Of a stretch of 32,425 bases of DNA, positions 4 through 8,135 are shown piece after piece. The stretch is from Pseudomonadota bacterium (GTDB lineage: Bacteria; Desulfobacterota; Desulfobacteria; Desulfobacterales; JBDRRP01). Location: positions 62,001-94,425 of the forward strand of contig JBDRRP010000092.1 in NCBI GenBank assembly GCA_043825735.1. The letters are read 5' to 3'. Made by a program: the position numbers and the translations under genes. How positions within the stretch are numbered: position 1 is the stretch's first letter; every line of letters begins with the position of its first letter. Below the pieces are notes generated by a model. It ran no database searches, was not told where the DNA came from, and worked only from the letters and a program-made list of their open reading frames with translations.

Positions 4-3000
4 ATGGACAGACAGCAGGAAGAGCGCATCATTCAAGACGCCATCGCCCAGGCCGAGGCATGGCAAAACCGGGCCAATGAACTGCTGACCCGGGAAGAAA
101 AAGGCATCCAGGAGCAGATGAAGCGGCTGCTCACCCATCCCATGGACAAGGTCGTTCTCACCAAGATGATCGATCAGAGTTTTCGCTCCCACGATCCTGC
201 GCGCATCGCCGATCAGGTCAATGCCATTTTGGGCGAATGCGGCGTTCCTGATTTCTTCAGCCGGGTGGAAAAATTGCTGGTTCAGATGTTCATGGGGGTC
301 GGCCGCCATTTTCCGGATTTCGCCGTTCCCAAAATGATCGACAAAATGCGCCAGAATTCCAGCCGTGCCATCATCGCGGGTGAAAAAGAGGCCCTGCACG
401 CGCATCTGGAAAAGCGTCGGGAACAAGGCGTGCGCATGAACATCAACCATCTGGGAGAGGCGGTGCTGGGAGAAGACGAAGCGGCCCACCGGTTGGAAAT
501 GTATCTTGCGGACATGAAGGATCCGGATATCGAGTACATCTCGGTGAAGATCTCAACGATTTATTCCCAGATCAGCTCACTGGCCTTCGAGCATTCCATC
601 GCGGTGCTCACAGAGCGTCTTTCCATCCTTTACCGGGAGGCGAAGGCCAATTTTTACACCCGTTATGACGGCACCCGGGTGCCCAAGTTCGTCAATCTGG
701 ACATGGAGGAGTACCGGGACCTGGCGATCACCTCCCAGGCCTTCATTCAGACGCTCGATCAGCCGGAATTCGCCGACTACTCCGCCGGTATCGTGCTCCA
801 GGCCTACCTGCCCGATTCCCACGGCATCCAGCGGCAGTTGACCGACTGGGCAAAAAAGCGGGTGGCCGCCGGCGGCGCCCCGGTCAAGCTCAGGATCGTC
901 AAAGGGGCCAACATGGAGATGGAGCAGCTCGAGTCCGCCTTGTTCAACTGGCCCCTGGCTCCCTACGACAACAAACTGGACGTGGACGCCAACTACAAGC
1001 GCATGGTGGTCTACGGCATGAAGCCGGAAAACATCCGGGCCGTCAACCTGGGCATCGCCTCCCACAATCTTTTCGAGCTGGCTTACGCCTATAAAGTGGC
1101 GCAGGCCTACCAGGTCCCCGAATACTTCTATTTCGAAATGCTCGAGGGGATGGCCGATCACGTGCGACGGGCCCTTCGGGAGATGTCCGGAGACGTGCTG
1201 CTGTATGCCCCGGTGGCGACCAAGGATGAGTTCATCAACGCCATCGCCTACCTCATCCGTCGGCTAGACGAAAACACGTCACCGGAAAACTTCCTGCGAT
1301 ACGCGCCCAGCCTGACGGTGGGTTCCGGGGAATGGGAATTTCTAAAGGAAGGGTTCGTGGCTTCCTGCGCGCACCGGGACGCGGCCCCGATGACGCCCAA
1401 CCGGGTCCAGGACAGAAACACCGAAACGGCTGCTGAAAAAGCCGGCACTTTTTCTACCGGGGAATTCATCAACGAACCGGACACGGACTGGTCCCTGGCC
1501 GCCAATCGGCGCTGGGCCGAGAGCATCCGCGCGCGCTGGAAGAAATCGGCCGGTGATGCCCCCATGGACATCCCGGTAGTCATCGGCGGCGCCGCGCGTT
1601 TTGAAGACCGGGAGATCATCTCGTGTATCGACCCCAACCAGCATCCTGACATCGTGCCGGTGGCGCGCTGTGCCATGGCGAGCCGCGAAGATGCCCTGGA
1701 TGCGGTCACCGTGGCAACGGCCGATCCGGACGGCTGGCGCCGGCTGTCATCGGCCGCCCGCCACGAAATCCTTTCCCGGGTCGCCTGTGAACTGAGAAAA
1801 GCCCGAGGCGATCTCATCGGTGCCGCTGCCGCCAACACCGGAAAAGTTTTCTCCGAGACGGATGTGGAGGTCTCCGAAGCCATCGACTTTGCCGAATACT
1901 ACCCGCTGACCGTTCGCCAGTACGATGCCATCGGCTCGGTGACCGTTGCGGGAAAAGGGGTGGGGCTCGTCGTCTCGCCGTGGAATTTTCCGGTGGCCAT
2001 TCCCTGCGGCGGCATTGTCGCGGCACTGGCGGCGGGCAACACCGTTGTCTTCAAGCCGGCCTCCGATGCGGTGGTGGTGGCCTGGGAGCTGTGCCAGTGC
2101 TTTTGGCGGGCGGGGATATCGAAAAACACACTGCAGTTCGTTCCGTGCGCCGGGGGCAGCGTCGGCCCGGTGCTGACCGGCCACCCGGATGTGGATTTCG
2201 TGATTCTTACCGGCGGCACGGACACCGGTCTTAAAATGCTGGAGCGCTCGCCGGGGATCTATCTGGCGGCGGAGACCGGCGGCAAGAACGCCACCATCGT
2301 CACCGACATGGCCGACCGCGACCAGGCCATCAAGAACGTCATCCATTCCGCCTTCGGCAATTGCGGTCAGAAGTGCAGCGCCACATCGCTGCTCATTTTG
2401 GAAAAGACCATCTATGACGATCCCCACTTCCAGCAGCAACTGGTGGACGCCTCCCGGAGCTTAACCGTGGGCAGCGCCTGGGTTTTCGAAAACAAGATGG
2501 CTGCACTCATCCGGCCGCCGGCGGGAGATTTGGCGCGGGCGATGACGACACTGGAGCCCGGGGAGCGCTGGGCGCTGAAGCCTGAGATGGTGGGCGAAAA
2601 CCCCCACTTGTGGAGCCCGGGGATCAAGTACGGCGTCCAACCGGGCAGCCACACCCATATGACCGAGTTCTTCGGAGCGCTGCTCGGGGTCATGCGCGCC
2701 GATAGTCTGGAGCACGCCATTTCCCTGGTGAACCAGACCGGATACGGTCTCACATCAGGTATCGAAAGCCTCGATAAGAGAGAGCAGGACATCTGGAAAG
2801 AGCGGATCTTTGCCGGCAACCTTTACATCAACCGCGGCACCACCGGCGCCATTACGCTGCGCCAGCCCTTCGGCGGCATGGGAAAATCTGCGCTCGGACC
2901 GGGGCTCAAAGCCGGCAGCCCCGACTATGTATCCCAGTTCATGGATTTCACAGAGACGGGCCTCCCGGAAACCGGAGTGATCGAAAGGGACTATCGTCTG

Positions 3001-3609
3001 CTGCGACTGATGCAGGAATGGCAGCAGATGATCAAGTGGGGACAGCACGCCGAGCACCGCGACGATCTGTACCGGACGGTACGGGTCGTAAAGAGCTATC
3101 TCCTCCACGCCGAGCGAAAGTTCTCCCGGGAGGAAGACTATTTTCATCTGCGGGGTCAGGACAACATCCTTCGCTACCGCCCGGTGGGCACCGTGGTGAT
3201 CCGTCTTCACGCCAGCGACACGCTGTTCCAAACCCTTGCCCGTATCGCCGCCGCGACGGTGAGCGGTTGCCGGCCCGTGGTGAGCATCCCAACCGGGCTC
3301 AGCAACCCTGTCACCGCCTTTCTCTTTTCCAGGGAAGGAAAGAAGCTGCTCGGCGGGGCGGACGCATCGTTTCATGCCGACAAGGCGCTCATCGCCATGA
3401 TGCCGAAAATCGACCGGATCCGCTACGCCGCCCCAGACCGGGTGCCCGAGGCGGTCTTTGCGGCTGCCGCCAAAACCGGGTTTTACATCTCCCGGACGCC
3501 GGTCGCGATGGAAGGGCGCATCGAACTGCTCCAGTACTACCGCCAGCAGAGCATCTGCAACAACTACCACCGCTACGGCAATCTGGGCGAAAGAAGTCTG
3601 ATCGCCTGA
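4..3609 (+). CDS. putA: Bifunctional proline dehydrogenase / glutamate-semialdehyde (P5C) dehydrogenase, PutA
   Basis: 1201 aa. PRODH motifs (NLDMEEY, GIVLQAYLPD, RIVKGAN, IASHNLF, YLIRRLDEN) followed by ALDH motifs (VSPWNFPVAIP, FKPA, AETGGKNA, GQKCSATS catalytic Cys, TEFFG, TGYGLTSG, RQPFGG). No N-terminal RHH domain evident. Confidence 0.96.
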   Translation: MDRQQEERIIQDAIAQAEAWQNRANELLTREEKGIQEQMKRLLTHPMDKVVLTKMIDQSFRSHDPARIADQVNAILGECGVPDFFSRVEKLLVQMFMGVGRHFPDFAVPKMIDKMRQNSSRAIIAGEKEALHAHLEKRREQGVRMNINHLGEAVLGEDEAAHRLEMYLADMKDPDIEYISVKISTIYSQISSLAFEHSIAVLTERLSILYREAKANFYTRYDGTRVPKFVNLDMEEYRDLAITSQAFIQTLDQPEFADYSAGIVLQAYLPDSHGIQRQLTDWAKKRVAAGGAPVKLRIVKGANMEMEQLESALFNWPLAPYDNKLDVDANYKRMVVYGMKPENIRAVNLGIASHNLFELAYAYKVAQAYQVPEYFYFEMLEGMADHVRRALREMSGDVLLYAPVATKDEFINAIAYLIRRLDENTSPENFLRYAPSLTVGSGEWEFLKEGFVASCAHRDAAPMTPNRVQDRNTETAAEKAGTFSTGEFINEPDTDWSLAANRRWAESIRARWKKSAGDAPMDIPVVIGGAARFEDREIISCIDPNQHPDIVPVARCAMASREDALDAVTVATADPDGWRRLSSAARHEILSRVACELRKARGDLIGAAAANTGKVFSETDVEVSEAIDFAEYYPLTVRQYDAIGSVTVAGKGVGLVVSPWNFPVAIPCGGIVAALAAGNTVVFKPASDAVVVAWELCQCFWRAGISKNTLQFVPCAGGSVGPVLTGHPDVDFVILTGGTDTGLKMLERSPGIYLAAETGGKNATIVTDMADRDQAIKNVIHSAFGNCGQKCSATSLLILEKTIYDDPHFQQQLVDASRSLTVGSAWVFENKMAALIRPPAGDLARAMTTLEPGERWALKPEMVGENPHLWSPGIKYGVQPGSHTHMTEFFGALLGVMRADSLEHAISLVNQTGYGLTSGIESLDKREQDIWKERIFAGNLYINRGTTGAITLRQPFGGMGKSALGPGLKAGSPDYVSQFMDFTETGLPETGVIERDYRLLRLMQEWQQMIKWGQHAEHRDDLYRTVRVVKSYLLHAERKFSREEDYFHLRGQDNILRYRPVGTVVIRLHASDTLFQTLARIAAATVSGCRPVVSIPTGLSNPVTAFLFSREGKKLLGGADASFHADKALIAMMPKIDRIRYAAPDRVPEAVFAAAAKTGFYISRTPVAMEGRIELLQYYRQQSICNNYHRYGNLGERSLIA

Positions 3610-3696: not shown

Positions 3697-5286
3697 TTAT
3701 CCAATACCGCGATCATCCGATGTTGCCGGGGCGGCTTCAATAAAACAGTAAGGGTCCCGGTCGTTGAAGATGTCCAGACCGTTACCGTAGATTACAGCCA
3801 TGCAGCCGCCGCAGACAGGGCGCAGCCGGCACTCGCGGCACGCGGCGGTGCCCGAGCGATATCGGCGTGCCGACGCGCCGTCGTAGATATCGACGAGCCG
3901 CTGGCTGAGGATGTTTCCGATGGGTGAGGGAAATTTGCGGCAGGCGTGCACCTCGCCGTCGGGAAGAAGCGAAACGAAGTTGAAGGCGGCGCCGCACCCA
4001 TGCCCGGTACAGCCGCCGAAGGGGGCTTTCCGCTGCCGATAGCGGGAAATATTGATCAGATTGTCCTTGAGTCCCATACCGGGGTTGTCATCTGCCGCAG
4101 CCAGATAGCGCTCGATCAAGCCGGGGTAGTCATGGATATCGGCCTGGTGCAAATCGATCCCTTCCCCCACCGGGGTGAGGCGGTTGAAGGTGAACAGATC
4201 CGCCCGGCCCCGAAGGTGCGCTGCCAGCGGGAGGACATCTTCGGTGTTCGCCTTGGTCAGGGTGAGCATGACCATGGAGAAGATGTCCAGGCCCTTGAGC
4301 GTGGTTAAAAAGTCCATCACCCGGTCAAAATGGCCTCGGCCGCGAATGTCATCGTTTTGCGCGCGCATCCCTTCCAGGCTGACTTGGTAAAATTCCGGGT
4401 GCCGGATGGCGACGATGTTTTCCAATTGGTGTCGCGGCACCGGGTTGCCCAGAATGGCCGTCATGAATCCGCGCTCGGCGGCTTCGCGATAAATGGTTGT
4501 GAAATGCGCGTGCAGGAATGGATTCCCGCCGGTGAAGCTGATTTGCCCTATAACATTTTTGGATCGGCAGAAATCGTAGGTGTCGTCGAGGACGGCCACA
4601 GCCTGTTTCAGAGAGAAATCGTCACGATTGCTGCGGTCGTAGCAGTGCCGGCAATGAAGGTCGCATTTTTGGGTGATGTGCCACTGGAGTGTGAAAACCG
4701 GGGAACTGAAATAGTCAGGGGTTGATATTTCCCCGCGGGGGAAACCGGGCGGCCGGGCAATTCCCGGAGGCGGCGCCAGGAGCAACCCCTTTGAGACGGC
4801 GGTTTCGAGGATGTCCGTGATCGTGCCCAGAGAAACACCGCCTTGGCCCGCAGCAGTCCGCGGGCTCATTTTCTCCACCACGATCTTCAGTGCCAGCAGG
4901 TCGTGACCCGATGCTGTGGCGATCTTCATCTCCCGGCTTCCGGGGATGCGCCACAGGAGGGTCGTCGCGTCGGCCGGTTCCGGCTCGATTGCATCACCGG
5001 CGATCAGTTCCGGCAGCCCGCGCCAGGAGACGGTCACGAACGTGAGATGGGGGTTGACCGAGAGCGACGTGACGACAGGCACAGCATCGGGCCCGGTTGC
5101 TGAAAGTTGGGCCGCCGCCCACTCCACTTTCGACAGATCATGAAGATACGGCTGCAGATTCAAAGCGCGGGCGTGCGTATTCAAGTAGTCGGGAAGGTCT
5201 TGGGGACGAAGATGCTTCGGCAGGGCGGCACCCGCACCCGTTATCAGACGGCATGATGCGGGAAACGCGGCGATAAGGTCTTGCAT
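3697..5286 (-). CDS. sbtM: Radical SAM/SPASM peptide maturase, SbtM-like (thio(seleno)oxazole / 'selenobiotic' family)
   Basis: 529 aa. FTLQWHITQKCDLHCRHCY (CxxxCxxC), FTGGNP, and C-terminal SPASM cysteines (GCTGHGCGAAFNF, CRKF, CRECRLRPVCGGC, DPYC). About 190 aa N-terminal extension (putative peptide-binding region). Directly downstream of an SbtA-like precursor; GGAG RBS. Confidence 0.88.
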   Translation of the reverse strand: MQDLIAAFPASCRLITGAGAALPKHLRPQDLPDYLNTHARALNLQPYLHDLSKVEWAAAQLSATGPDAVPVVTSLSVNPHLTFVTVSWRGLPELIAGDAIEPEPADATTLLWRIPGSREMKIATASGHDLLALKIVVEKMSPRTAAGQGGVSLGTITDILETAVSKGLLLAPPPGIARPPGFPRGEISTPDYFSSPVFTLQWHITQKCDLHCRHCYDRSNRDDFSLKQAVAVLDDTYDFCRSKNVIGQISFTGGNPFLHAHFTTIYREAAERGFMTAILGNPVPRHQLENIVAIRHPEFYQVSLEGMRAQNDDIRGRGHFDRVMDFLTTLKGLDIFSMVMLTLTKANTEDVLPLAAHLRGRADLFTFNRLTPVGEGIDLHQADIHDYPGLIERYLAAADDNPGMGLKDNLINISRYRQRKAPFGGCTGHGCGAAFNFVSLLPDGEVHACRKFPSPIGNILSQRLVDIYDGASARRYRSGTAACRECRLRPVCGGCMAVIYGNGLDIFNDRDPYCFIEAAPATSDDRGIG

Positions 5287-5374
5287 GATTCTCCGGCCGC
5301 GGGGCGATGGTTCTTTTTACCCTGCGATAGCGCACCGATGGTGAACCGCGGGCCAACGCGCGGTGATGACTAAC

Positions 5375-5403
5375 ACGCCGGCGTCAGGGATGCCCACCGG
5401 CGT
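5375..5403. terminator. Hairpin between precursor and maturase genes (possible attenuator or mRNA stabiliser)
   Basis: ACGCCGG (5375-5381) / CCGGCGT (5397-5403) inverted repeat, extendable with G-U pairs; only a weak U tail on the minus strand. Confidence 0.35.
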
Positions 5404-5418
5404 TTGGTTTTTATGAGC

Positions 5419-5437
5419 AGCATGCCTCCGGCATGCT
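5419..5437 (-). promoter_or_regulatory. SECIS-like hairpin 2 (3' UTR) for the UGA at 5449-5451
   Basis: Minus strand AGCATGC-CGGAG-GCATGCT, perfect stem starting 11 nt after the UGA; shares TGCCGG with hairpin 1. Confidence 0.6.
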
Positions 5438-5442
5438 AAAAA

Positions 5443-5766
5443 TCAGGCTCAGCCGCTTTTCCCGGATTTCTTTTTTTCTTTTTTGGCGTTACCCGCGTCG
5501 CCGGGTTTACCGGCTGATGTATTCTGCTGATCTGTTTCTAACACGGTTTTGTCTTTTTCCGCCGACTGTTCAGCGCTCACGGCGCTGCTGTTTTTCGCTC
5601 CTGAGCCGCTGGCGGCCGCGGGTTTTTCCACTGAAGTGCTCCCGGCACCCGGTTTGGCCCCTCAGCCGCTGCCGCCTTGGGCACCCGGCACGGTGACGCC
5701 GCCCATGCTGATGAGGCCGGCCACTCCCAGTCCTGCTAAAAATCGCTTTAATGCTTTTGTTTCCAT
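5443..5766 (-). CDS. sbtA: SbtA-family selenocysteine-containing RiPP precursor (107 aa if both UGAs are read as Sec)
   Basis: ATG at 5766 with GGAG RBS. Reads METKALKRFLAGLGVAGLISMGGVTVPGAQGGSG-U35(TGA 5662-5664)-GAKPGAGSTSVEKPAAASGSGAK...KKEKKKSGKSG-U106(TGA 5449-5451)-A-stop(TGA 5443-5445). Leader resembles the SbtA/GSU_1558 family (LK..LAGL..AGL); the frame stays open after the first UGA; adjacent to sbtM. The end would be 5449 if the second UGA is the stop. Confidence 0.85.
5635..5649 (-). promoter_or_regulatory. SECIS-like hairpin 1 for the UGA at 5662-5664
   Basis: Minus strand GGTGC-CGGGA-GCACT starting 12 nt after the in-frame UGA; G-containing apical loop at typical bacterial SECIS spacing. 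Confidence 0.7.
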
Positions 5767-5841
5767 CTCGTTCTCCCGGCTTACTTATAAACGGTGAATG
5801 ATTGAAAACGCTGATGCGGGTTTTTGAGCCGTATTGAAGCC

Positions 5842-6031
5842 ATCAGCAGTCACCAGGGAGGCTTGGCTAATGATGGCGGTAGCCGCAATGATCCGATCAG
5901 CCGGGTCTTTGTGGGCATCCCCGAACAGGCGGGCCGACAGTTCGGCCACCGTTGGAGAGATGGGGTGCAGGTGATAGACGCTGCGGCTGTAGGGCATTCC
6001 AAATGACAACATGGGTATCCACCACGATCAT
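5842..6031 (-). pseudogene. vapC: VapC/PIN-domain toxin pseudogene (internal deletion plus frameshift)
   Basis: ATG at 6031 gives the PIN N-terminus MIVVDTHVVIWNALQPQRLSPA, then runs out of homology and stops at 5897-5899. A second frame gives the PIN C-terminus HPISPTVAELSARL...HKDPADRIIAATA...LVTAD. The central part of the domain is missing; junction near 5965-5972. Confidence 0.85.
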
Positions 6032-6283: not shown

Positions 6284-7885
6284 TCATGGCACCGTCCAGC
6301 CCAGGGTAAAGTCGATGCGGCCGGGCTGCGGCAGTACGGCGGACGGCGGCGTGAGCCCGATGGCAAGGGCCGACGCCGCGCCGGTGTCGCCTGGGGCCCA
6401 GCCAATTTCCATATCCGCCGGCGGCTCCTGGCCGCTCGCGCGGAAGAACGCCGCCAGGGCGGCGGTCACCGCCGCCGGGATCCGTTCTCGGTCGGTTTCT
6501 TCGTCCATGGCCGTCTTCAGCTCGAAGAGAAATCCCATCAGGCGGTTGAAAAAGAGCTGGAACTTGAGGCTGCCGCCGGCCAGGGTGGCCTCATGGGGGA
6601 TGGCGGCCGTGTCCCGGCCGACGCCGCCGGCCAGGGGGATGATGCCGGATTCAATCAATTCGGCGATCCGGTCCTCGGAGATCAGGGCCTCGGTGGCGGC
6701 CGTGCGGCTGTCATCGACAGGGGCCACCGCGAGATTCGTGAGCGATAGGCTCCGGTAGTCGGTCAGTCGCGACGGCCAGCCGATAGTCGCCACACTTTTT
6801 GCCGCCAGAACGCCAAGGGCCCACACCGGGCTGACCCACAGCGGAGACGTTTCTGTAAATGAAGCGGTGCGCGGCGGGTTATCCTCGCCATAGGGCGCAC
6901 GGGTGAGAAACCGGTTGAGGGTGGCGGCCACCCACTCACTGCCTGGCGCCTGGCGTCGTTTGCGCCATTTGGCGTAGGCGGCGTTTTCCAGGTGGGTGGC
7001 GATGTAGGGCAGTTTGCCCAACGCCCGCCAGTCGGGCAGATGGAAAAAGCGCGGACCGATCCATACGGCCGTAGGCACCATGAGGGTGTCGGCGCAGGTC
7101 AGCACCGCGTCCAAACGCTCGATGCCGGGATCGGTGGCATCACATTCCATATCCAGGAGGATCAGGTTCGGTGGCACCTGGGAAAACGCCCCCGCGACCG
7201 TTTCCAGGGTGCCCGCAAGGCCCTGCCGTGAGACGCTGGCAATTTTCAGCGACACGGCGCCGCCGGGGATGACCGGGCCCTGGCAGACCAGGGCGGCCAC
7301 GCCCTGCCAGGCCGCCTCCAGTCTTCGAAACCCTTCATCGGCGTAAACGCAACCGAGCAGTGCGCTCATCAGACCGTCGATCTGTTTTCGCCAGCTCCGG
7401 GCATCGCCGGCGCCGGTCGCCCCGCCCCCGGCGCCGCCGCCGGGGGCGGCCACCATGGCGAGCAGATCATCCACGGCGCTTTGCTGCGCCGAGGCGGCGA
7501 CGGGCGCCGCGTCAGCGACGTTCAGGTCCAGAGGCAGGTTTGGCGCCGCCGCGGTGATCCGGGCGGCGATCTGCGCGGTCGATAACCCCGTCTTCAGCCC
7601 CTCGTCCACCGCTTCTCCAGCGGCCGCCAGGGATGCGAGATAGGGTACGCGCGCCGCCAGGCGATGGGGCTTGAAATCGGTCATGGCCGCGGGTTTGAAA
7701 TACAAAAACCCTTCCGGGCAAAAAGCCTGCGGCACCGCAATGGCCAGGGTGGGGGCCAGCGCGTCCACTGCCGCATCGAGGCTCTCGCGGTCGACATCGA
7801 CGATCTTGAATGCGGCCGGACGATCAGGCAGTTCGGCCAGCGGGGCCAGTGCTAGGATGGTAAAGGGTGTTTTGGGGATGTCCAT
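6284..7885 (-). CDS. Fused TssB-like + TssC-like T6SS contractile sheath protein
   Basis: Start moved to ATG 7885 (GGAG RBS). N-terminus PFTILALAPL...VDVDRESLDAAVDALAPTL...MTDFKP..LAARVPYL resembles TssB/VipA. QIDGLMSALL...FRRLEAAWQGV, YAKWRKRRQ...NRFLTRAPYGEDNP, PLWVSPVW, GWPS and TEALISE resemble TssC/VipB. Confidence 0.78.
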   Translation of the reverse strand: MDIPKTPFTILALAPLAELPDRPAAFKIVDVDRESLDAAVDALAPTLAIAVPQAFCPEGFLYFKPAAMTDFKPHRLAARVPYLASLAAAGEAVDEGLKTGLSTAQIAARITAAAPNLPLDLNVADAAPVAASAQQSAVDDLLAMVAAPGGGAGGGATGAGDARSWRKQIDGLMSALLGCVYADEGFRRLEAAWQGVAALVCQGPVIPGGAVSLKIASVSRQGLAGTLETVAGAFSQVPPNLILLDMECDATDPGIERLDAVLTCADTLMVPTAVWIGPRFFHLPDWRALGKLPYIATHLENAAYAKWRKRRQAPGSEWVAATLNRFLTRAPYGEDNPPRTASFTETSPLWVSPVWALGVLAAKSVATIGWPSRLTDYRSLSLTNLAVAPVDDSRTAATEALISEDRIAELIESGIIPLAGGVGRDTAAIPHEATLAGGSLKFQLFFNRLMGFLFELKTAMDEETDRERIPAAVTAALAAFFRASGQEPPADMEIGWAPGDTGAASALAIGLTPPSAVLPQPGRIDFTLGWTVP

Positions 7886-7923
7886 GGCGATCTCCTCGTT
7901 TTGGTTTTCAGCAGCAAAAATCA

Positions 7924-8135
7924 ATTTCGCGCAGAGACGCGGAGGCGCAGAGAAACTCGTGAGTAGAAAACCAGAATACGCTTATGCCGAAAGCTCAAGT
8001 TGACGTGATCTGAGCCATTGAATTGCTTACCACCAAGTTCATGTCACCCGCAGCGGCCCTGAGGCGCAGGGAAAGGCATGCCCGCATTTCCATTTTTTGT
8101 AGTTCTCTGCGTCTCAGCGTCTTTGCGCGGGAAAT
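7924..8135. repeat. REP/MITE-like element bounded by ~30-bp imperfect inverted repeats
   Basis: Left arm ATTTCGCGCAGAGACGCGGAGGCGCAGAGAA (7924-7954); right arm TTCTCTGCGTCTCAGCGTCTTTGCGCGGGAAAT (8103-8135); degenerate third copy at ~8044-8073. Confidence 0.7.

Follow-up and report, generated by a model that had tools for sequence, protein, structure and literature searches.

An SbtA precursor gene beside its SbtM maturase, with two predicted selenocysteines and a putative SECIS beyond the stop codon

The sbtA–sbtM cassette and its closest described relatives

The closest described system is that of the SbtA precursor and the SbtM maturase (TIGR04081/TIGR04082; Haft and Basu 2011, Lewis et al. 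2021, both as cited in the parts of PMC9204691 and PMC11002830 available to us). According to the same portion of PMC9204691, SbtM of another system builds, in vitro, a ring from a Cys or Sec residue and the carbonyl of the preceding Gly, and the thio(seleno)oxazole so formed has a signature of -4 Da and ~304 nm. Precursors with several Sec residues are also on record, with "at least two SeCys" in that paper and two Sec, in the context SGUG, in a table of PMC13188914 (both consulted as excerpts). A Sec at the end of a bacterial protein with its SECIS beyond the stop codon has been described for DUF466/KCU-star (PMC4607533) and for SaoC (bioRxiv 10.1101/2022.07.06.499078); these proteins are unrelated to SbtA and, in the passages available, their Sec is the last residue before TAA or TAG, whereas here it is penultimate and followed by a UGA stop. 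In short, neither an SbtA with several Sec nor a C-terminal Sec in a bacterial protein is new. In the accessible parts of the literature on SbtA we did not find an untranslated SECIS, an export signal or the loss of a core, and the primary papers (Lewis 2021, Haft and Basu 2011) may contain terminal Sec.

The window, i.e. the whole stretch of 32,425 nucleotides that was analysed, carries on its minus strand a gene of 107 codons plus a TGA stop (5443..5766), preceded by a GGGAG ribosome-binding site (5773..5777, minus strand) placed 6 nt before the ATG, with a GGAG(G) spacing shared by the homologues. Direct reading of the frame from the ATG at 5766 gives 34 residues, a TGA (UGA35, 5664-5662; first core, S-G-U-G), 70 residues, a second TGA (UGA106, 5451-5449; penultimate core, K-S-G-U-A), Ala107 (GCC) and a third TGA (UGA108, 5445-5443). 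The sequence AGC GGC TGA occupies codons 33-35 and again codons 104-106, just as a first, sequence-only reading of this DNA had described; that reading had also noticed that the gene escaped the ORF track, and it is indeed missing from the table-11 ORF list of the window.

When the TGA codons are read through, residues 1-27 of the product match TIGR04081 with 43 bits against a cut-off of 30.5, and the homologues align along the frame. Downstream, at a distance of 157 nt, lies sbtM (3697..5286, minus strand), which encodes a radical SAM/SPASM maturase of 529 aa (TIGR04082, 677 bits against a cut-off of 350) whose CxxxCxxC motif and SPASM cysteines are intact, and invariant in 10 aligned sequences. 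The earlier assignment of an SbtA precursor beside an SbtM enzyme is thus borne out by two curated cut-offs and by the adjacency of the genes, which form a two-gene cassette. A search of the genome for a second copy was negative, the window's sbtA being the sole SbtA over the cut-off, and a Pfam scan of the read-through peptide matched no family. Compared with the described system, the locus shares the HMM matches, the adjacent genes, the Gly-Sec cores with a downstream SECIS and the presence of two Sec; it differs in its last core, S-G-U-A-stop instead of the reported GGUG/SGUG, and in a middle core decayed to Ser.

SbtA precursors are routinely mis-called, either cut at the first UGA or translated with Trp in place of the UGA. 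The sbtA of the window appears in the protein collection as two pieces of 34 aa and 60 aa. SbtA homologues in public collections (P0005-P0013, P0015) have Trp at each UGA.

On the chemistry described in vitro, SbtM would be expected to form a selenooxazole from each Gly-Sec. Since the ring uses the Gly carbonyl and nothing downstream is required, the penultimate Sec would be chemically eligible and, by analogy, both cores are probably modified.

A conserved transporter, regulator or metal gene was not found next to sbtAM in the 1.5-3 kb flanks of 97 loci, and clustering of 749 ORFs from these loci returned only sbtM, its opposite-strand shadows and genes common to close kin. The rest of the window consists of a type VI secretion-related array and a PutA-like gene, unrelated to the cassette as far as the homologous loci show. 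The array (6284-31603, minus strand) has three near-repeated modules (VgrG, DUF2169-pentapeptide, pentapeptide, DUF3540, PAAR-like), with a fused sheath small/large subunit-like gene at 6284-7924 on the same strand, and the PutA-like proline/P5C dehydrogenase gene (4-3609, plus strand) encodes 1201 aa, ~200 C-terminal residues of which extend past the matched domains.

Hairpins behind the in-frame UGA codons

According to the consulted part of PMC13188914, a bacterial SECIS has a G in the first two loop positions, a stem of at least 4 pairs and a loop 16-37 nt from the UGA. Hairpins had been placed by the sequence-only reading 11-12 nt past each UGA, the second of them non-coding, and both were found. 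Specifically, hairpin 1 (candidate SECIS 1, 5635..5649, minus strand) begins 12 nt past UGA35 within the codons for G-A-G-S-T, and has 4 Watson-Crick pairs plus a G-U pair and a CGGGA loop whose G lies at +19. Hairpin 2 (candidate SECIS 2, 5418..5438, minus strand) begins 11 nt past UGA106, has 8 Watson-Crick pairs, is entirely untranslated and places its loop G at +20. UGA35 and UGA106 agree with the published model, whereas UGA108, with the loop G at +14, does not.

The regions of UGA35 and UGA106 fold at -11.8 and -16.9 kcal/mol, respectively. The folding energy is significant for hairpin 2 (z -3.18, 2/200 shuffles as good), but not for hairpin 1 (z -0.21, 72/200 shuffles as good) nor for a third, orphan hairpin described below; for these two the z-score, not being significant, was dropped as proof and the comparative test was used. 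CGGGA is the second commonest internal loop among the homologues (10/78 distinct hairpins), and SECIS 1 is retained in a relative recovered from sequencing run X5. An Rfam gathering scan of the window gave zero matches. Further downstream, a second intergenic hairpin (5372..5405, minus strand), where many homologues have a terminator-like stem, has no U-tract and was not called as a minus-strand terminator.

For the comparison, SbtM/SbtA loci were taken from genome contigs (18 loci), metagenomes (16) and relatives (7 of 61 genomes), with further loci from the phylum (30 of 401) and the order (at least 30 loci, 49/401 genomes having SbtA). A leader HMM built from these loci yielded 83 distinct precursors, that of the window included; L066 and L110 were skipped, and the frameshifted L052, L105 with its run of N, and L045, L108 and L111 with over-late ends were retained in the counts. 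Hairpins were scored by a rule of at least 5 stem pairs, at most 1 G-U and a G[G/U] loop, with that G 18-26 nt past the codon.

The number of UGA cores per precursor is 0 in 8, 1 in 4, 2 in 24, 3 in 34, 4 in 12 and 5 in 1, and at least two are therefore present in 71/83. In 67 of the 75 UGA-bearing precursors the last UGA lies 0-6 residues from the end (it is the last residue in 11 and the penultimate in 24), and the stop that follows these 67 terminal cores is TAA in 33, TAG in 21 and TGA in 13. The arrangement of two Sec with one at the C-terminus, which the sequence-only reading had treated as unusual, is accordingly common in the family, and multiple Sec is in print (PMC9204691, PMC13188914, in the excerpts consulted). 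Real SbtA substrates have 2-4 cores, the last one at the very end; the window's sbtA is an ordinary family member whose odd-looking end is the rule among relatives, and the single gene adds little, as the family, the chemistry and the multiple Sec are already known.

A hairpin at 18-26 nt follows 65/67 terminal UGAs and 114/140 internal UGAs, as against 0/58 Cys cores, 0/17 TGA stops and 0/8 stops of UGA-free precursors; the homologues are kin, so that these counts are not independent and suggest more independence than there is, but the contrast with the Cys cores is nevertheless complete. The background of the rule at the stops of long ORFs in this genome is 29/2214 for TGA, 18/923 for TAG and 21/1119 for TAA. 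Ten of the 26 internal misses precede another UGA by 3-7 codons, their hairpin lying at +28 to +43, two have 4-pair stems, three are due to mis-set ends, and 11 have none by the rule. The commonest spacing from an internal UGA to the G is +22 (74 sites), and at terminal sites the spacing has an SD of 2.3 nt when measured from the UGA versus 4.1 nt from the stop (n=66). In addition, pairing is kept across the 48 distinct terminal hairpins while their stem letters alternate between C-G, U-A, G-C and A-U, a result to be taken as descriptive since the hairpins had been selected for pairing. At the level of sequence, the comparative test is decisive for hairpins occurring more often than by chance, and it supports the earlier proposal of two recoded UGAs, the second with a 3'-untranslated SECIS. 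It is probably the RNA hairpin, and not the enzyme, that dictates the motifs following the cores (GAGST, SAVSA), because Cys cores and terminal cores lack them.

In the alignment, Cys replaces Sec at the first core of L036-L038 and at the last core of L053 and L104, so that either Cys or UGA stands at the cores; at the second site the homologues keep a UGA with its hairpin, and not a TAA or TAG. A true stop at UGA106, leaving a 105-aa product with one Sec and making hairpin 2 a terminator or an mRNA-stabilising stem, would suit the strength of this stem right behind the stop codons and the commonness of tandem stops, but appears very improbable, given the conserved G[G/U] loop and UGA distance, the absence of the hairpin from UGA-free precursors, the 54/67 terminal cores that run on to TAA or TAG and the Cys in the last core of L053 and L104. 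Moreover, a U-tract follows just 2/66 terminal hairpins and a separate stem with a U-tract stands further on in 32/66, and the terminal hairpins are therefore not terminators. Termination at UGA35, giving the 34-residue product found in databases, is hardly credible: such a 34-mer would be leader only, and the frame remains open and homologous for 70 codons more. The 34-aa collection entry and a hairpin 1 no better than shuffles speak for it, against a hairpin that is found at 114/140 internal UGAs and not at Cys cores.

With UGA35 and UGA106 as Sec, the question of the stop comes down to distance. SelB on a hairpin would serve a UGA with the loop G at least 18 nt downstream; hairpin 2 would then, with high probability on the sequence evidence, serve UGA106 and be too close to UGA108, which would terminate, the +19 and +20 of UGA35 and UGA106 being set against only +14. 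The U-x-TGA ending of the window is found in 8 precursors, in which 13-16 nt separate the loop G from the second TGA, and this conserved spacing agrees with the earlier view that one UGA is read as Sec and the UGA two codons later as stop. Read-through of UGA108 into a 150-aa product was rejected, the loop G lying at +14 and homology ending before. The selenium-dependent series of 34-, 105- and 107-aa products that had been proposed is generic to selenoproteins. The U-A-stop ending represents a compact natural test of SelB versus release factor at UGAs 6 nt apart, by distance alone.

Other arrangements were observed among the homologues. In 11 precursors (L017-L022, L036-L038, L090, L096, L103) Sec is the last residue before TAA or TAG and the hairpin is untranslated. 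UGA pairs 3-6 codons apart in L020, L036-L038, L040, L042, L048, L050 and L057 apparently share one hairpin, whose G is at +28 to +40 relative to the first UGA. In L048, L058 and L060 a Cys-only SbtA-like paralogue stands in tandem with a Sec-type precursor. The notion that Cys-only precursors mark Sec-less genomes was dropped, since selA is present in 4/5 such genomes tested and the fifth is 67% complete.

A lost middle core and an export-like leader

Codon 55 of sbtA (5602..5604, minus strand) is TCA, one base from TGA, and encodes the second Ser of S-G-S-G. The alignment places it opposite the middle UGA of L011, L012 and L035 and of collection proteins, and an orphan SECIS-type hairpin (5571..5587, minus strand; 6 pairs, loop CGTGA), recognised from folding, the homologues and the X5 relative, has its loop G at +22 from this codon. 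Run X5, the RNA library of a different study, contains a contig of 266 nt with 31 differences over 221 nt; this contig carries the TGA base at 5603 and leaves the orphan hairpin unchanged, but at its depth of 2.6 any single difference may be an error. At a depth of 27, run X1, from which the window itself may derive, matches the window. In P0010 a separate loss is seen at the same middle core. The two-core account given by the sequence-only reading overlooked this lost core, whose hairpin (5587-5571) survives, and sbtA is a three-core gene from which one core was lost, apparently recently.

A wider decay of the window's copy, with a core lost and the promoter region taken by a frameshifted PIN remnant, is improbable. 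The TCA at codon 55 would fit it, as would the end of the remnant 19 nt before the ATG and an upstream promoter match at chance level (2 sites versus 1.0 expected), but sbtM is intact, as are the frame of sbtA and its two working hairpins, the middle core is lost in P0010 as well, two-core members are common (24/83), and an RNA library of another study contains a contig of 151 nt that covers the 3' end with 2 differences. The remnant itself, PIN/VapC-like and frameshifted, lies at 5785-6031 (minus strand) and matches PF01850 with 22.1 bits, below the cut-off.

As for RNA data, sequence words of the stretch were next to none in two RNA runs of the same study, run X5, an RNA library, gave only low-depth contigs matching the stretch, and runs X3, X4, X6 and X7, with a small share of the stretch or none, are evidence neither way. 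By eye, a TTGAC promoter-like site stands ~100 nt upstream of sbtA in L011, L017-L019, L022, L086, L097 and L098; the same eight loci have an upstream palindrome of the ATCGA-N5-TCGAT or ATAG-N7-CTAT type, which suggests a regulator; neither element is present in the window. Terminal cores decay too, as seen in L057, L072 and L106: in L106 an extra base precedes the last core and the hairpin is kept, and in L072 the relics of a terminal core and its hairpin stand behind an early TAA.

The leader (residues 1-31; 5674..5766, minus strand) defines the family and was overlooked in the sequence-only reading as a predicted export signal. It has a basic n-region, 29 uncharged residues, a hydropathy of 2.04 over 12 residues and a cleavage-like site of the AxA type, A-Q-G before G-S-G-U. 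Every one of the 83 leaders combines a basic n-region with a hydrophobic stretch whose hydropathy over 12 residues is at least 1.90, and loose patterns, which both over- and under-call, find a lipobox-like Cys in 39, an AxA-like site in 30 and neither in 14. Lipobox-like and AxA-like sites alternate at one place, which argues for real export. Residues 1-31 are thus predicted, with good likelihood, to be cleaved on export, which would leave a 76-residue hydrophilic, low-complexity and probably disordered chain with a selenooxazole near each end. A separate case is codon 29 of L092 (G486), where the lipobox-position Cys of this lipoprotein-type SbtA, TGT in the close homologue L088, is TGA (L-S-A-U) and the nearest hairpin G is at +43; this is either a nonsense mutation or Sec at the lipidation site.

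Selenium supply and the role of the product

The genome contains selA, two selB over the cut-off, two selD each with one in-frame TGA, and two UCA tRNAs, so that selA, selB, selC and selD are all present. A six-frame search of the genome with the hairpin rule gave 76 candidate UGAs, many of them noise, among which are the sites of the SelD pair, one each, with the loop G at +18 to +24. Three other candidate contexts, which we take to be formate dehydrogenase-, HdrA- and MvhD-like, have the same hairpin with the loop G at +18 to +24.

On contig C107, the second UCA tRNA, with A1:U72 and U73, immediately precedes the second selB. The latter overlaps a gene for a CysRS of 417 aa, which is shorter than the canonical CysRS (478 aa) and stops ahead of its C-terminal segment. 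Judged by tRNA features and gene order, this is a selC*-selB*-cysS* (tRNA-ReC) operon (G000:C107, L081:8539-11828; tRNA at L007:1503-1596). It resembles the operon of Desulfobacterales described in the consulted part of PMC5389517 in its UCA tRNA (A1:U72/U73), its downstream selB* and its overlapping short cysS*, and appears to differ in the CP1 segment: the motif PTVS of D. biacutus CysRS* is lacking, and the segment is also unlike that of the genome's canonical CysRS, with which it was compared. CysRS* itself was inactive in E. coli (PMC5389517, same excerpt). Behind the operon on C107 come a 2-hydroxyacyl-CoA dehydratase-like pair, a sugar-type ABC transporter, the second selD with its in-frame TGA, and a TusA/DsrE gene.

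As stated in the available part of PMC13582414, citing Vargas-Rodriguez 2018, tRNA-ReC inserts Cys at UGAs that have a SECIS, and genomes of this kind may place either residue there. It is conceivable, at somewhat less than even odds, that under low selenium this module inserts Cys into SbtA, giving thiooxazoles instead of a truncated peptide. With the module present, low selenium need not give the 34- and 105-aa products, and that idea is weakened. The stronger version, in which tRNA-ReC and SelB* make Cys the main reading of the UGAs and the usual product is a thiooxazole peptide, draws on the complete operon and on the decoding just cited, but is unlikely to be correct, as the canonical selA/selB/selC/selD set is present too, the partition between Sec and Cys is stated to be unclear (PMC13582414, same part), and a second selB was not seen in 40/48 SbtA genomes. 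A link of selB* with SbtA was likewise dropped: with a second selB in 8/48 SbtA-bearing genomes, the Cys route is a host feature and not part of the SbtA system.

In conclusion, we assign a probability of about 0.75 to the reading that, in the sbtA–sbtM cassette, UGA35 and UGA106 are very likely Sec and would be converted into selenooxazoles in a peptide with predicted export and possible binding of soft metals such as Cu(I). The last point has its own, lower standing. In the parts consulted of PMC11626156, PMC12668002 and PMC12538549, 5-thiooxazole MNIO peptides bind Cu(I) and are either exported or built with several cores, and because of this we tentatively suggest that the SbtA product may be a soft-metal sequestration peptide like bufferins and captophorins. 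The export-like leader, together with the likeness to Cu-binding thiooxazole peptides, makes this a testable proposal, to which the gene neighbourhoods of the 97 loci lend no support. A scan of 21 window proteins revealed neither MNIO (DUF692) nor DUF2063 genes.

Sec usually marks redox chemistry, which counts for a product that is redox-active or antimicrobial (a "selenobacteriocin") or a selenium sink, the coding model being right and the chelator reading wrong. This possibility, which we consider appreciable though not favoured, is further suggested by the lack of metal-related neighbours at the loci and by the listing of the family as "Selenobacteriocin" (PMC13188914, in the part available); it is opposed by the lack of immunity, protease or dedicated exporter genes nearby, by the lipid-anchored appearance of about half of the homologues, and by the variable number of cores on flexible linkers, which resembles multi-core thiooxazole chelators.

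Returning to the chelator reading, the likeness of SbtA to bufferins, captophorins and bulbicupramide (PMC11626156, PMC12668002, PMC12538549, as far as consulted) lies in the Cys heterocycle type, the repeated cores and the lack of a dedicated protease, and bufferins (PMC11626156, PMC12668002) also have a Sec-pathway signal peptide. The difference is that those peptides are made by an O2-type MNIO with a DUF2063 partner and not by a radical SAM enzyme, contain Cys only, and have metal binding shown; the comparison is one of working alike, not of membership. A bolder and rather unlikely extension would make SbtA the anaerobes' selenium counterpart of bufferins, that is, a family of exported or lipid-anchored multi-selenooxazole metal chelators with the SECIS of the last core untranslated and, in this organism, a switch between seleno- and thiooxazole, operated by tRNA-ReC according to selenium supply. 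If true, the last core would have been freed from coding its own SECIS, the hairpin having moved to the untranslated tail.
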